From positions 224,001-288,000 of IMG/VR virus record IMGVR_UViG_3300036987_000310: 64,000 bases of DNA. One strand, written 5' to 3'. The notes under the pieces are model-generated. The model saw only the letters and a program-made list of their open reading frames with translations. It made no database searches and was not told the DNA's origin. Position numbers and translations under genes: made by a program. Numbering within the stretch: the first letter of the stretch is position 1; each line of letters starts with the position of its first letter. The DNA comes from a virus. Lineage: Duplodnaviria; Caudoviricetes. Shown here in pieces: positions 55,057 to 62,233 of this stretch.

Positions 55057-56241
55057 TTACAGCAGACTTATCATGTCGTCATGATCTGCTCCGGTGCCAA
55101 TAAGAACCACCGGTATGTTCGCTGTCTCTTCGATTTTATCGATCATCGCCCTCGTTTCAACTGAGAGCTTGTTGAACGCTTCTCGCCCGCCACGCAGCCC
55201 GTTGTCGTGCCAGTTTAAATATTGCACAAAATTCAAAATCAGCTTCGTAGCCCCGTTTGTGGCGACCGCGTCTTCCAGTCCTGTCCACGAGAAGGTGCAC
55301 ACCCGTCTGACACGTTTCGTTACAGTAGTTTTTTCACGCTCTATGAGACTGCTAACTTCACTGTCTGGCATTCCGGCTTGTTTGGCTATCTGCCCCCAAG
55401 TCAATTCTTTACAGTCAGGATAGAAGTCCCCTGAATATCCAAGTTGCACACCATCTTCTTCAACATTCCCTACGCGAATGCCGAAGGTGCGGAGATTCAG
55501 ATAAACATCCCCAACATCCCTTGCCGGAATTGCCATATCATCCATGGCCTTTTGTGCCGTGCAATTCCTTGAAGTGCAGTGTGGGTAGCTCGAGCCATGA
55601 TCAATGGACAGGGCGTATCCCTGAGATCCTTCGTGCAGCCAGGTGTTTCCTTGTCGGATCATCTGTTGAACGCTTGACCTGAAGTGCGAGCCGTCGAGAA
55701 TGCGGACACAAGACGCAAACTCCTCTAGATCTACTTCCGTTCCTGTCCATTCCTCAACAGACCTCGACCCAGCAAGAAGAACTGATTCCTTCCTAAGGAT
55801 TTTATCCACCATTGCTGCGGAGCACCCCTGCATGGTGGACGCAATATGTTTTGTAGATCCAGGGCCGGTTTTTTCCATTTCGGCGTGGCTGGGAGTGACC
55901 ATGGAAGCTCTAGAGTGAATTGCGACGTTTGGCTTGCCAGTTTGGATCCACTCCGTAATGAGTCGGCTCCAATGTTCGCTGTCGGTTATGGTGATCCCAG
56001 AAGCTGGCGACAACCACCCCATGATGTCCAAAGCTTTAGCCTGTCTGAGCGCCAGAGCCGTAGGGAGGGTCTTTGCCACAAATTTATAGTTTTCGCTTTG
56101 AAAAGTGTGTCCAGCATTCGGAAAATTCGACGACGAGACGTTGTTCACACAGAATTTGTCAACAAGCCATGCCGAAACCTTTCCTTTTCCAGAACTACCC
56201 CACATTGCGTCCAACAGTATGTTAAATTTTCCTTGTTGCAT
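55057..56241 (-). CDS. purZ: adenylosuccinate synthetase homologue with PurZ signatures
   Basis: DAMWGSSGKGK (Ser where PurA has Asp), NFPNAGHT, EGSQGYALS, YPHCTSR, RTFGIRVGN, TTVTKRVRR, LNFVQY. Confidence 0.8.
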   Translation of the reverse strand: MQQGKFNILLDAMWGSSGKGKVSAWLVDKFCVNNVSSSNFPNAGHTFQSENYKFVAKTLPTALALRQAKALDIMGWLSPASGITITDSEHWSRLITEWIQTGKPNVAIHSRASMVTPSHAEMEKTGPGSTKHIASTMQGCSAAMVDKILRKESVLLAGSRSVEEWTGTEVDLEEFASCVRILDGSHFRSSVQQMIRQGNTWLHEGSQGYALSIDHGSSYPHCTSRNCTAQKAMDDMAIPARDVGDVYLNLRTFGIRVGNVEEDGVQLGYSGDFYPDCKELTWGQIAKQAGMPDSEVSSLIEREKTTVTKRVRRVCTFSWTGLEDAVATNGATKLILNFVQYLNWHDNGLRGGREAFNKLSVETRAMIDKIEETANIPVVLIGTGADHDDMISLL

Positions 56242-57851: not shown

Positions 57852-57938
57852 AATGACAATACATTACAGTTCATGTAATGCCATAAGTAGAACTGTAATG
57901 GAGTTCAAGTCTCGAGTTTAACAAGATTGGAGGACAAC

Positions 57939-58931
57939 ATGAAGAGATACACTCTCCATGTGTTTGTGGTGACTTTTGTTGTTTTTGCGTTTTCTTGTTT
58001 GTCAGCTAATGCTGGCGGTCCAGGCATGCCTGGAGGAAACGTAGCTGAAACAGCTCCTGAACCGGATGTTTCCGGTGACGCGACTCCTGCCCGTCAACCG
58101 AGTGTTTTTGATGTTCAACAATGGGCAGTTGAACGAATGGTCGCATGGTCAAAGCCCGGCGTCACTCTACACCCTCCTGCTATGGAGTCGTTTGAAGAGG
58201 GGAAAGCAAGATATGGGTTGATAGCGAACGCAGTGTTCCAGGCAGTTGTTCAAAACAAACCGGTCTTCAGCGGGTCAAAAGCTCGTGTTAGAACAGCTGC
58301 CTTAATACTAGCTGTGTCCATGTTTGAAAGTGCATATAGAAAAGACGTCGACATGAACCTCGGAAAAGAAGGTCGGGGCGACAACGGTCGTTCTTGGTGT
58401 CTGATGCAAATTCAGCTCGGATCTCCCATATGGATCGACTCTTCTGGAAAGCGAGTAAACCTTGTTCAAGTCTGCACTGAAGAGGTGTCCGACAGCGGGA
58501 AAATAGTTAAAAACTGCAGATACGACCCGCCTCTTGGCGCTGTTGCATCGACGCCTTCTCGCGTTGTTTTTGTCGGGGATGGTTACGAGATTACTTCAGA
58601 TCAAACTCGCGGCTATAGTGGTCAAGATTTGGTTTCAGATAGAGAGTTGTGTTTTTCCACGGGTCTTCGGATTATGAGAAGGTCTTTTTCAGCATGCAAA
58701 AACCTTCCTCTTTCTGATAGGTTGAGCGCGTATGCGTCAGGTAACTGCGAGAATGGAAGAGAAGCCTCGAGGAGGCGCATGGCTGTGGCAATCAGATGGA
58801 TGGCACAGCATCCTTCTCCGGTAAACGATGATCAGCTCGTTCGGCTTTTTTCCACCCGTTCCGTAAATGTTCCACCTGCCCCGAGGGAATCGTCAGAAAA
58901 GACATCAGAAAGCATTGCGCTTTTGCCGTGA
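57939..58931 (+). CDS. exported lytic transglycosylase (SLT/lysozyme-like) protein
   Basis: Signal peptide/TM; AVSMFES, SWCLMQI, LSAYASG. Confidence 0.65.
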   Translation: MKRYTLHVFVVTFVVFAFSCLSANAGGPGMPGGNVAETAPEPDVSGDATPARQPSVFDVQQWAVERMVAWSKPGVTLHPPAMESFEEGKARYGLIANAVFQAVVQNKPVFSGSKARVRTAALILAVSMFESAYRKDVDMNLGKEGRGDNGRSWCLMQIQLGSPIWIDSSGKRVNLVQVCTEEVSDSGKIVKNCRYDPPLGAVASTPSRVVFVGDGYEITSDQTRGYSGQDLVSDRELCFSTGLRIMRRSFSACKNLPLSDRLSAYASGNCENGREASRRRMAVAIRWMAQHPSPVNDDQLVRLFSTRSVNVPPAPRESSEKTSESIALLP

Positions 58932-59026
58932 TCGTGGTATGTTTGTCTGAGCGTAGGGGGCGTAAACTCGTCCCCTTGGTCGGTACCCGGTAAGTCGGCA
59001 CGTCGAGTGCCGCATGGAGGCAAGAC

Positions 59027-60556
59027 ATGGACGGTTCTTTATGGGAGAGGGTTGACGGGTCTCTATGGAGAGAAGTCAAAATCCCGACAAACCACGAATT
59101 CTTGCAAAAATATCACCAATGGATATACAGGAAGGTATCTGATCGTTTCCGGCGCGACAAGGATCGCGTTCAAGACACAGTCCAAAACGTCAGGGTTAGA
59201 CTTCTTCAAAAAGACTTCATCGGAAGATGGTTTTTCAAGCATTTGACCCACGAGCTGGTTGATAGAACTCAAGCAGAGTTTGTGCTGGGAAACAACATAA
59301 AACTCAAGTTCATATCCGCAGTCAGCCCAGTCGTGGGAACTCGTGGCCAGATTGACTCTTTGTGGAGAGTGTCTGACCTGCTTGAGTATGCGAAGTTCAA
59401 TCGAGAAAGATACTTTTATTCGGTGCAGGGGCACACTATCAACTCCGACACCACGCTAAAGCTTTTAGGATACCCTCCCGGAAGCTACAATGCTTTGAAG
59501 TCCTTGTATAAGCAAGGACGTCTGAAGCCTTCTGAACTTACTGGACACGAATGCTCAGAGTCTTTGCTCACGGCTCTTCCTGTCAACGGGCTGTGCTCTG
59601 AGCCAGGATGTGGCAAAAAGCATTTCAGTCGCGGGTTTTGCACCAAGCATTATGGGAGGCGTCTCAAAGACAGGTGTCCGATTTGCGATAGAGGTAGAGC
59701 TTCGTTGCGATCCAAGGGCCTGTCTCTTGCTGACGATTGGATGAAATCTTCGCATGCGGCTGCACTTCGATGGGACGATTCGCAGCTCAAGTCGTTTCTG
59801 AGGCGTTGGCGCGGGCAAAACATGATCAGCTCTGTTCCGCAAAGAATAGTGCGGCCGGATGGGCAAACCGGCCCGTATAAGGGGATTGAAGCTGGTTTGT
59901 TGAAGTATGCATGGAATCTCATCAACAACGAGGTCATCAACGACTTTAAACGCATGACTCGCACCATGGACATGACCTGCATGGTGTTTAACGACGGTGT
60001 GTCCCCGGACGCTGATGGGTCTGACGCGGTTGTATGGGAGCTTGACGATGACGGGATGAAAACTCAGATGGTTGTGAAGGACTCGTCCTCCATGGACGAA
60101 TTTTTTGCTTCCGAGAACGGGTTTGACATCATGTCCATGGTCCGACGCGCCAACTTGTCAGATAACGAGATCGATGTCATAATGCAGGTTGACCTGTTAG
60201 AAGAAAACGTGCGCAAATACGCTGATGCTATTGGAGAGTCCACTGCTCGCGTTCATCGCACGAGAAGTTCGGCTCTTGAGAAAATGCGGCATGTTGATGT
60301 TTCGGACGCTGTGCTGATTGACATGGTGGAAAATGTGTGTCAAAAGCACGAGTGTAACTCTGACGACATGTTTGGGAACTCCCGCGTCGGCCCATGCGTT
60401 CTGGCCAGAACCGAGTTCTTTTACAAGCTGTCGAAGCTAGGGTTGTCCGTTGAAGAAATGTCTGCCCGAACCGGGGTATCTGTTGATCGTGTTTCGTCTT
60501 CTGTGGGTCGGGGGGAGCTTCGACAGAAGGCGTGCGAAGGGGCATTAGTTCAATAG
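59027..60556 (+). CDS. ECF-like sigma factor with a large insertion in region 2 and a DnaA-C-like HTH tail
   Basis: KYHQWIYRKV..RVQDTVQNVRVRLL; LLKYAWNLINNEVINDFKR; LSDNEIDVI..YADAIGESTARVHRTRSSALEKMR; SRVGPCVLARTEFFY.L..LGLSVEEM. Confidence 0.65.
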   Translation: MDGSLWERVDGSLWREVKIPTNHEFLQKYHQWIYRKVSDRFRRDKDRVQDTVQNVRVRLLQKDFIGRWFFKHLTHELVDRTQAEFVLGNNIKLKFISAVSPVVGTRGQIDSLWRVSDLLEYAKFNRERYFYSVQGHTINSDTTLKLLGYPPGSYNALKSLYKQGRLKPSELTGHECSESLLTALPVNGLCSEPGCGKKHFSRGFCTKHYGRRLKDRCPICDRGRASLRSKGLSLADDWMKSSHAAALRWDDSQLKSFLRRWRGQNMISSVPQRIVRPDGQTGPYKGIEAGLLKYAWNLINNEVINDFKRMTRTMDMTCMVFNDGVSPDADGSDAVVWELDDDGMKTQMVVKDSSSMDEFFASENGFDIMSMVRRANLSDNEIDVIMQVDLLEENVRKYADAIGESTARVHRTRSSALEKMRHVDVSDAVLIDMVENVCQKHECNSDDMFGNSRVGPCVLARTEFFYKLSKLGLSVEEMSARTGVSVDRVSSSVGRGELRQKACEGALVQ

Positions 60557-60568
60557 CCCTTTAGTTGC

Positions 60569-62233
60569 ATGGTGAACACAGCCATGCGCACACATCTGTC
60601 TGCCAGCACCAGGTTCATACTAGCGGTTCTGCGTTTGAGCGCAGACATTGCTGAGGGTTTCGGACAGGCTGTCCTCGATATCCTCTCCAAGCAGTATCCA
60701 GAGATGAAGGAGGAAATGGCGGAGGATCCGCAGTACGCGGAAAACCCTGCCGCTTCCATCGGACATAAGCTTGTTGCCATAGCAAGAAAACAGCTTCAAT
60801 ATAATGAGCAGGATGCATACGACGCCATCCAGGACATGCTCGTCTATATTGTGACAAGTAAGTTTGACTTCAAGGCAGAAACAAAGAAGGGGAAGCCTGG
60901 GGCGTCTACTTGGAAGAAAGCGTTGAGTAACATCTACGCAAATCTCCACGCCAAGGCCATGTCTCACTCGTTCAAGAAGTTCAAATCTGGAAAGCATACG
61001 GACGAAGAAGTTTACGCGGACATGCTGTGGCGCAGAAATCAAGCGTTGAGCGGCAATGTGAGGTATACCTGGACTGACAAAGACGACGACGATTTCGTGG
61101 ACGTCGGAAAGCGTCTAATTAACAAAGGTGTTGATCTGAAGGCTATTGTTCCGACGAAGCTTCGTCGCAAGAATGTTCGAGACAAGTCCATAGACGAGGC
61201 TTTCGGAAAGCGCGGCGAAGAGGGAGGAGCCCCCGAAGGCGGTCTCGGACGAATGCCTCAAGACTTGGATACGGCCGAAGGAATGCCGCTTGATGAGAAA
61301 GCCGCTAAGAAGAGTTTCTTGGATGCTTTGGACCAGTTGATCCCGGATCTTAAACGAAGTCTTCCACTGACAAACGACAATCTTCCTGCTCAAAAGATGC
61401 TGTTTGATTTCATCTTTGACGAAGACGGCTCCGGAACTTTTTTGCCTGACATCAAAGCCAACATGGGCCAGGCCACGGATTTTCGGAATTATTTGGAAGA
61501 AATATCTACACGTGCTGGCCCGAACGCCAAAGAAGCTAAAGAAATTCTGAAGAGATACGGAAAGCGGTGGTCCGGATTCGTTGGGGATACCCGAACCAGG
61601 TTAATGAAGTCAATTCAAAACTTTGTCGAGGAATATCTCCCGGAACACGAGTATGAACAGTTGTGGAATGCGTTCTACTCCGACGTCACCCCGCAGGCTG
61701 CGGAAAAGATTCAAACTAAAAGAAATATTGAGCAACTCAGCTATCTTAGAAATGTTGATCTTCGAAAGCTCTTGCGTATGGAAGAAAGGCAGAAGCTTGG
61801 GCTTTTGTCTGACAAGGAGACGAAGGACAGGTCCAGCCTTCGTCAGCGTTTGCTGAAAGACGTAGCAAACGAAAACGCTGAGTACCAGCAAGATCTTGAA
61901 AGATATAAGAAGAGAATGATAACTTATCTGGAGAAGCAGTCAAAATATTCTGACTTGCCTCCTGAGAAGCAGCCAAAGCTCCCAATAAAACGTCCTGTCA
62001 GGCCTCAGAAGCCTCTGTCTCTCGATGAACAACTGAAAACCGTCATGGCAGAAGACGGTGGAAAAATTAAGCAGGAAGTTGAAGAAGAGTTCAAGATCAA
62101 ATTGGACCAGGACCAAAAAAATAAAGAGGAAGTGGAACTCTCCGAGTCTTTGGCTGAAGAAGCCAACGCTGAGGTCGATATTAGACACGGTGTTGCGGCT
62201 TTCTTCAAACGTTTTCTGCCAGAATTTTCTTGA
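60569..62233 (+). CDS. large hypothetical protein with a sigma-region-2-like segment and a charged coiled-coil tail
   Basis: IARKQLQYNEQDAYDAIQDMLVYI..TW..ALSNIYANL. Confidence 0.75.
   Translation: MVNTAMRTHLSASTRFILAVLRLSADIAEGFGQAVLDILSKQYPEMKEEMAEDPQYAENPAASIGHKLVAIARKQLQYNEQDAYDAIQDMLVYIVTSKFDFKAETKKGKPGASTWKKALSNIYANLHAKAMSHSFKKFKSGKHTDEEVYADMLWRRNQALSGNVRYTWTDKDDDDFVDVGKRLINKGVDLKAIVPTKLRRKNVRDKSIDEAFGKRGEEGGAPEGGLGRMPQDLDTAEGMPLDEKAAKKSFLDALDQLIPDLKRSLPLTNDNLPAQKMLFDFIFDEDGSGTFLPDIKANMGQATDFRNYLEEISTRAGPNAKEAKEILKRYGKRWSGFVGDTRTRLMKSIQNFVEEYLPEHEYEQLWNAFYSDVTPQAAEKIQTKRNIEQLSYLRNVDLRKLLRMEERQKLGLLSDKETKDRSSLRQRLLKDVANENAEYQQDLERYKKRMITYLEKQSKYSDLPPEKQPKLPIKRPVRPQKPLSLDEQLKTVMAEDGGKIKQEVEEEFKIKLDQDQKNKEEVELSESLAEEANAEVDIRHGVAAFFKRFLPEFS

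Follow-up and report, generated by a model that had tools for sequence, protein, structure and literature searches.

What kind of protein results when the part of a sigma factor that reads the -10 promoter element is interrupted by a whole additional domain? The question is raised by a gene at positions 59027-60556 of a 64-kb stretch of viral DNA (hereafter the window), which corresponds to positions 224001-288000 of the complete, 376,674-bp virus record IMGVR_UViG_3300036987_000310, with direct terminal repeats. The gene, which like all of the features described here lies on the + strand unless otherwise stated, starts with ATG 7 nt downstream of a Shine-Dalgarno sequence (GGAGG, 59016-59020) and encodes a 509-residue protein (P0001) that is conserved in a clade of huge phages. 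A reading made from the sequence alone had described it as a relative of sigma factors of the extracytoplasmic function (ECF) type with region 2 cut in two, and the motif strings on which that description was built are all present where it placed them. Folding, structure comparison and hidden Markov models together give the order of domains as the first half of sigma-2, the insert, the second half of sigma-2, an acidic linker, sigma-4 and a helix-turn-helix (HTH) tail that resembles DnaA domain IV. The gene probably encodes a working alternative sigma factor for the RNA polymerase (RNAP) core of the host, one that is of the sigma-70/ECF type though highly derived.

The motifs in this open reading frame are not there by chance, because the protein has 139 full-length homologues (36-69% identity, in a collection of 5.8 billion proteins) and because 59 columns are invariant across 41 aligned members. 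The homologues are all metagenomic; many reside on huge-phage contigs of 240-440 kb, and some have been automatically named "sigma24 family protein". An exhaustive profile search of 1.84 billion representatives returned 48 clusters at E <= 1e-30, and no homologue was found by tblastn and megablast in 50,697 deposited phage genomes. The family comprises at least 136 members, and member counts are given out of 136.

The first half of the sigma-2 domain, regions 2.1-2.2, covers residues 22-62 (59090-59212), and the second half, the helix of regions 2.3-2.4, covers residues 287-318 (59885-59980). The NCBIfam model TIGR02937 (sigma70-ECF) is colinear with both halves, its positions 5-41 aligning to residues 24-61 and its positions 51-163 to residues 290-422, while the positions left unmatched, 42-50, are those of the loop that connects region 2.2 with region 2.3. 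The model is matched by 38 of the 41 aligned family members at E <= 0.01 (best 7.3e-12). The region-2.1/2.2-like string FLQKYHQW...VRVRLL occupies residues 25-60 and the string LLKYAWNLINNEVINDFKR residues 291-309, with 230 residues between them. Invariant positions are found on both sides of the interruption, namely R47, D50, Q53, R58 and K62 in the first half and A289, G290, L291, L292, Y294, N305, F307, K308 and R312 in the second. The family profile also reaches two canonical sigma factors with regions 2 and 4 (P0194 and P0212), only from profile position ~271 on, that is, from the second half of region 2, and BLASTP of the 509-residue protein against the canonical ECF sigma P0194 is colinear from residue 283.

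Structure comparison points the same way. An AlphaFold2 (AF2) model of the 509-residue protein, built from the 41-member alignment, has a mean predicted local distance difference test (pLDDT) score of 84.9. Its matches to sigma-2 structures (2mao, 2o7g, 1h3l, 1sig, 8b3z and 8i24) range over residues 15-323, beginning at residues 15-22 and ending at residues 308-323, with 69-98 residues aligned; the scores include sigmaE (2mao, Z 7.6), SigC (2o7g, Z 7.3, root-mean-square deviation (rmsd) 2.2 A), SigR (1h3l, Z 7.2), sigma-70 (1sig, Z 6.7) and T4 gp55 (7d7d_F, Z 6.6). A sigma-2 chain of 70-90 residues is thus aligned over a span of ~290 residues, and therefore the helices on both flanks of the insert are used. 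That the helices of residues 22-61 and the helix of residues 287-318 join as one sigma-2 bundle is accordingly a prediction supported in silico: the sequence-only reading had made its case depend on such a bundle, and in the AF2 model the two halves do form one. Its central claim, an ECF-like protein with sigma-2 cut by a large insertion, is borne out by structure matches that span both halves and by the colinear TIGR02937 alignment.

The position of the cut gives the locus its interest. In ECF sigma factors, the pocket that takes up the flipped -10 base is made by loop L3 (the "specificity loop"), which joins the region-2.2 helix to the 2.3-2.4 helix, and a swap of this loop alters promoter specificity (PMC8103513, PMC6648896). 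Because TIGR02937 aligns colinearly to both flanking halves, the insert of the phage protein can be placed within L3. The earlier suggestion that the insert sits at the loop that sets -10 specificity in ECF sigma factors therefore agrees both with the alignment and with the L3 literature (PMC8103513, PMC6648896).

The first half of sigma-2 also retains what is expected for contact with the polymerase, since the invariant residues D50 and Q53 are in register with the D/E-x-x-Q motif of region 2.2. Modelling with core RNAP, which had been proposed as a check in the sequence-only reading, was carried out with residues 1-320 (using the family alignment) and a fragment of E. coli beta' (residues 240-330), and it predicts the canonical contact with the clamp helices. 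The predicted complex has an ipSAE interface score of 0.67, as against 0.05 for the best of three controls, a score that shows likeness to solved sigma/beta' complexes rather than binding; among 80 solved complexes 58 attain the ipSAE mark, and among 110 mismatched pairs 2 do so. Three runs share at least 66% of contacts, with a partner pLDDT of at least 80. In the model, beta' residues 271-298 face residues 23, 26-27, 30, 49-50, 53-54, 56-57 and 60-61 of the phage protein, an interface centred on D50/Q53 and apparently of the textbook sigma-2/clamp-helix type.

The insert itself (residues 63-286, 59213-59884) is a family-specific, net basic segment in the specificity loop with no known whole-domain fold. 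It is the best-conserved part of the protein in the family alignment, with the motifs RWFFKH, SLWRVSDLL, ERYYYS-Q-HT, LGY, SLYRQGR-KP-ELTEH-C, C-x2-C-x2-GR, LRWNDSQL and FLR-WR-x2-N. The interruption of about 225 residues is therefore real, as had been claimed, but the word "insert" misleads insofar as it suggests a recent addition, this being the most conserved and family-defining part of the protein. Its invariant columns include H174, C176, C217 and C220 (59546-59686), which presumably form a zinc site. The minimal family form of this putative site is H-x-C-x4/5-C-x2-C, compact in most members, and CxxCxxG is found in 133 of the 136. The CPIC string singled out in the earlier reading (C217-P-I-C220) is present, and together with H174 and C176 it belongs to this putative core site, unlike the C-x4-C-x9-C-x2-H piece that had been mentioned alongside it, which is variable. 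The latter (C189-x4-C194-x9-C204-x2-H207-Y208, with C189 to H207 at 59591-59647) is part of an optional module of 35-40 residues that is nested between C176 and C217 and occurs in 39 members. It had been likened to the zinc motif found with HNH nucleases, and it does match the N-terminus of a phage HNH endonuclease family (phrog_5351, positions 8-32 of 171, E 4e-4). The possibility that the insert is itself an HNH nuclease was rejected, since the Cys/His motif alone matches phrog_5351 and there is neither an HNH match in Pfam nor an HNH catalytic domain.

Folded alone, the insert reaches a pLDDT of 88.9 and a predicted template modelling score of 0.78. Fold searches gave at best Z 5.0 with VIA against the PDB, nothing at E <= 0.001 with Foldseek against the PDB, and template modelling (TM) scores below 0.3 in an Atlas shape search, a lack of matches that is no proof of a new fold; an Atlas feature search scored at most 0.89, which serves as a lead only. 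Two sub-modules (residues 76-127 and 132-261) weakly resemble winged HTHs of the MerR/Xis type, namely BldC, Pukovnik Xis, BmrR, TipAL and the C-terminus of TniQ (Z 2.3-5), and Pfam and NCBIfam show no MerR/excisionase (HTH_17) match in the insert. An internal duplication was also considered and rejected, as hhalign between the sub-modules was not significant. The exhaustive profile search of 1.84 billion representatives revealed no homologue of the insert outside the family. Its net charge is +16 in this protein (family median +9) and is concentrated in the zinc region and the segment that follows it.

Downstream of the split domain, an acidic, low-confidence linker (residues 319-352, 59981-60082; net charge -7, pLDDT below 50 at residues 318-331) leads to a sigma-4 HTH domain (residues 353-424, 60083-60298). 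This domain matches SigB (8x6g_H) with a VIA Z of 9.4 and SigL (6dv9_F) with a Z of 9.2; PF04545 (Sigma70_r4) matches residues 376-422 (E 0.028, under its cut-off), and a profile search against PDB sequences brings up sigma region 4 almost exclusively. The region-4 HTH that the earlier reading had placed after the split region 2 is thus supported. The same can be said of the DnaA-like tail (residues 425-505, 60299-60541), of which residues 428-505 of the AF2 model match the domain-IV structures 1j1v_A (Z 10.2, rmsd 2.5 A, 78 of 94 residues) and 3pvp_A (Z 9.9). PF08299 (Bac_DnaA_C) aligns to residues 434-482, its sole match in the 377-kb genome. The family profile also matches proteins that pass the Bac_DnaA_C cut-off, P0162 and P0164; these are metagenomic proteins of ~300 residues with three tandem Bac_DnaA_C domains and HTH_38, and are the closest outside relatives of the tail. 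In BFVD, the fold of the tail occurs in many small stand-alone phage DnaA-C-like proteins (rmsd 1.4-2.6 A).

Resemblance to DnaA need not carry the function of DnaA with it. The signature in domain IV that reads DnaA boxes is RDHTTV. At the corresponding position the tail has VDRV in this protein and EDRV or EDRI in the family, and Pfam, NCBIfam and the AF2 model show no AAA+ domain in the 509 residues. The tail is present in 117 members and absent from 19 (~14%); one tail-less gene (locus L014) is complete and in the same synteny, with no DnaA-like domain within 8 kb that might represent a detached tail. Because ~14% of members do without it, the tail can be viewed as an accessory module for specificity or affinity, and we regard it as a general-purpose HTH module of phages that was co-opted to help read DNA, and not as a sign of origin binding.

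The genome around the gene provides the setting for these inferences. The models for the large RNAP subunits Rpb1/Rpb2 (PF00562 and PF00623) have no match in the complete 376,674-bp genome, although very divergent enzymes of the phiKZ type could escape them, and since no RNAP large-subunit family was detected, use of the host core with phage sigma factors fits. The phage has an unusually large sigma kit, which further includes a 223-residue ECF-like sigma, a sigma of 247 residues that has both region 2 and region 4, and a protein in which the region-4 domain occurs twice; these three genes lie outside the window, at ~88.2-88.8, 194.8-195.5 and 306.7-307.1 kb of the genome. The 223-residue sigma has 289 homologues and is kept on the same huge-phage contigs.

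The position of the split gene is the same in six phages, whose sigma-like proteins are 42-47% identical to the present one. The shared order is ThyX, a PurZ-type homologue (on the other strand), a gene of 261-334 codons, the sigma-like gene, a gene of 399-554 codons, two small genes, two clamp-loader subunits and ribonucleotide reductase. In the window, the adenylosuccinate-synthetase homologue is at 55057-56241 (- strand) and falls in the PurZ family phrog_1211 (E 5e-45); all six phages have such a homologue no more than a few kb from the sigma-like gene, and that of locus L015 carries an intein/LAGLIDADG insertion. The gene just upstream of the sigma-like gene (57927-58931, 334 residues) is syntenic and has a hydrophobic, signal-like N-terminus, with no match in Pfam, PHROGs or NCBIfam. 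The downstream gene (60569-62233, 554 residues) starts 12 nt past the end of the sigma-like gene and is translationally coupled to it and co-conserved in all six loci. By eye its product has ECF-like motifs (MDAIQDFLxYL, WxDALxAIYxNL, LPDL...LFDLI), and an Atlas feature (language-model) search leans to viral Sigma70_r2 clusters with a score of 0.91, again a lead only; Pfam, PHROGs, NCBIfam, a PDB profile search and hhalign gave no match that would mark it as another sigma. The encoded protein may be either a partner protein or another divergent sigma.

Several smaller features accompany the gene. Upstream of the operon that contains it, the intergenic region 57852-57926 has TGTAAT twice (57874-57879 and 57894-57899). 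A stem-loop, CGGCAC-gtcga-GTGCCG (58996-59012), ends 3 nt before the Shine-Dalgarno sequence, the two elements together spanning 58996-59020. It is found in five of the six syntenic phages, with compensatory changes in three of its six pairs, and is absent from the tail-less locus L014. This 6-bp stem-loop could be a translational operator, a stabiliser of the 5' end or a protein-binding inverted repeat. At the N-terminus of the sigma-like protein, a tandem 8-residue duplication, DGSLWERV/DGSLWREV (residues 2-16, 59030-59074), is modelled as a beta-hairpin and is shared by the closest relatives only.

The pieces can be assembled into a model in which the phage redirects the host RNAP core with this 509-residue sigma. 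The helix with the invariant D50 and Q53 would dock canonically on the beta' clamp helices, the acidic linker would thread as does the linker between sigma-2 and sigma-4 of ECF factors, and the intact sigma-4 domain would read a -35-like element. The C-terminal DnaA-type HTH might then read an additional element located immediately upstream of the -35 region. The basic, presumably zinc-containing insert, in place of the L3 loop, would lie at the -10 element, the spacer and the upstream fork, where it may set or extend -10 recognition or melting. The genes turned on in this way would probably belong to a later class, because the sigma-like gene sits in a module of replication and nucleotide metabolism.

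A number of observations weigh against this model. The sequence scores are low: TIGR02937 gives 24.9 bits for the 509-residue protein (curated cut-off 42.9), PF04545 gives 14.3 (cut-off 24.1), PF08299 gives 14.7 (cut-off 31.5), and PF04542 gives no match; precomputed Pfam does list PF04545 for some relatives. The first half of sigma-2, taken alone, is weak by sequence (E 0.04-0.08), with 6 of 41 N-terminal pieces matching the ECF model, and BLASTP of residues 10-80 against the canonical ECF N-terminus finds no match. Segment-wise profile comparison, suggested earlier as a check, was applied to the N-terminal half and to a spliced alignment against an ad hoc sigma set and the small sigma family of the phage. 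The register came out as expected, though without significance (E 0.05-0.19); in the comparison of spliced residues 15-62 and 287-425 with the small sigma family, hhalign was colinear and not significant (E 0.19). Z-scores of ~7, as obtained for sigma-2, are not unusual among helical bundles. The beta' partner used in modelling was an E. coli stand-in for that of the host. A domain of ~225 residues in the specificity loop could abolish normal handling of the -10 element, and the sole grounds for DNA binding by the insert are its charge and the sub-module matches of Z 2-5. Finally, no cognate promoter was found for the protein, and k-mer sharing in the six phages revealed no promoter motif 5' of the gene, the hairpin next to the Shine-Dalgarno sequence excepted.

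Some of these points could be accommodated if the protein were a sigma-derived DNA-binding regulator or "appropriator", which does not melt promoters itself and instead activates or represses transcription alongside a sigma of the host or the phage, reading DNA with several HTHs (sigma-4, the DnaA-like HTH and the insert). Such a role, which we consider possible but doubtful, would suit a single chain with three or four HTH-like modules, a replaced -10 specificity loop and scores under the family cut-offs, in a phage that already has a canonical 223-residue ECF-like sigma, a 247-residue sigma and a tandem-sigma-4 protein. It leaves unexplained why D50, Q53 and the Y294...N305-F307-K308 helix, the residues that one would look for in core binding and in the 2.3-2.4 helix, are invariant, why an acidic linker of ECF-like length has been kept, and why the predicted canonical beta' interface passes its controls. 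The tail invites a different proposal, already made in the sequence-only reading, that transcription is linked to origin binding: the DnaA-type HTH would bind the phage origin and the sigma part would recruit RNAP for transcriptional activation or R-loop priming. The gene does head a conserved replication and nucleotide module, with clamp-loader subunits and ribonucleotide reductase downstream, and the tail does have the fold of DnaA domain IV. The proposal nevertheless finds no support and is very improbable, given that the box-reading signature is replaced, that there is no AAA+ domain, and that 19 of 136 members are tail-less, L014 having no tail within 8 kb even though the gene keeps its position. 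Furthermore, stand-alone DnaA-C-like HTHs are so common in phages that the fold is a general DNA-binding module, and no iteron array is seen adjoining the gene.

The remaining alternatives accept the protein as a sigma factor and differ in what they assign to the insert. It might not read DNA at all, serving instead as a regulatory or docking domain in cis, either a zinc- or redox-sensitive autoinhibitory module, comparable to anti-sigma domains that are fused or bind zinc, or a platform for the conserved neighbour protein. The invariant His/Cys cluster and the coupled, co-conserved downstream gene are compatible with such a role, and ECF sigma factors are known to gain fused regulatory domains, as in ECF41 and ECF56 (PMC3426412, PMC7730460). 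Those domains are C-terminal, however, and not within sigma-2; the insert is strongly basic and located at a DNA-facing loop, and its sole fold sub-matches are DNA-binding winged HTHs, so a purely regulatory insert appears unlikely. At the opposite extreme, the insert could be an autonomous nucleic-acid-binding domain in charge of -10 recognition and melting, maybe one that evolved for 2-aminoadenine DNA. Combined with sigma-4 and the DnaA-type HTH, it would allow promoters to be read at three or four points, and the protein would stand as a new structural class of the sigma-70 family. The idea of 2-aminoadenine comes from the gene always lying a few kb from a PurZ-type gene; the promoters would then pair with three hydrogen bonds, and the changed base might be beyond the pockets of ordinary sigma factors. 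This is a speculation to which we give a slim chance.

The working-sigma interpretation can also be judged against known systems. Like the ECF (group 4) factors (E. coli sigmaE, M. tuberculosis SigL and SigH; 2mao, 6dv9, 5zx2), the phage protein has sigma-2 and sigma-4 without sigma-1.1 or sigma-3, an acidic interdomain linker, a D-x-x-Q core-binding helix, the Y/W...N...N/D..R pattern in the 2.3-2.4 helix and a match to TIGR02937. It differs from them in that the L3 loop of 8-12 residues is replaced by a conserved, presumably zinc-containing domain of 195-275 residues, and in its extra C-terminal HTH and its scores under the curated cut-offs, and no anti-sigma partner was recognised for it; it is a very divergent ECF relative. 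A large lineage-specific domain next to or within the sigma-2 module can be compatible with sigma function, as the non-conserved region (sigma-NCR) of primary sigma-70 factors illustrates. The sigma-NCR is located between regions 1.2 and 2.1 and points away from promoter DNA, whereas the insert of the phage protein interrupts the DNA-facing loop that joins region 2.2 to region 2.3. ECF41, ECF42, ECF52 and ECF56 (SigG1) likewise have an ECF core enlarged by domains in one polypeptide; theirs are terminal and regulatory (SnoaL-like, TPR, zinc-finger/transmembrane), while the phage protein has one addition within sigma-2 and another that is a DNA-binding HTH (PMC3426412, PMC7730460, PMC5826349).

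With DnaA domain IV (1j1v, 3pvp) and the stand-alone phage proteins of BFVD, the tail shares the fold over ~78 residues and a G...A-R...G...R framework; unlike DnaA, it has no AAA+ or other DnaA domains, does not keep the box signature, is fused to sigma-4 and is optional in its family. Among phage sigma factors, T4 gp55 (7d7d_F) and those of Bacillus phages are likewise encoded to redirect host RNAP, and gp55 is among the sigma-2 matches. However, gp55 has no sigma-4 and works with gp33 and the sliding clamp, and none of these proteins has an intradomain insert or a DnaA-type tail. T4-like jumbo phages use the host core with phage sigma factors, and a jumbo-phage survey names only minimal and RpoD-like sigmas (PMC7824862); the combination of a split sigma-2 with a DnaA tail is unmentioned both there and in a study of ECF evolution (PMC7671368). 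A literature search, incomplete in coverage, found no sigma factor with a domain inserted in sigma-2 or with a DnaA-type tail.

What sets the protein apart is that a conserved, putative zinc domain of ~225 residues takes the place of the ECF loop, and that a third, putative DNA-binding domain follows sigma-4. In ECF factors a loop of ~10 residues decides which -10 base is flipped and hence which promoters are fired (PMC8103513, PMC6648896). Should the phage protein function as a sigma, it would follow that the sigma-2 scaffold can accept an entire domain where it reads DNA, which would be a new way to build promoter specificity and would be relevant to orthogonal expression tools based on ECF factors. 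It would also be an entry point to the gene-expression programme of these 240-445-kb phages, an uncultured, widespread clade whose DNA is probably modified.

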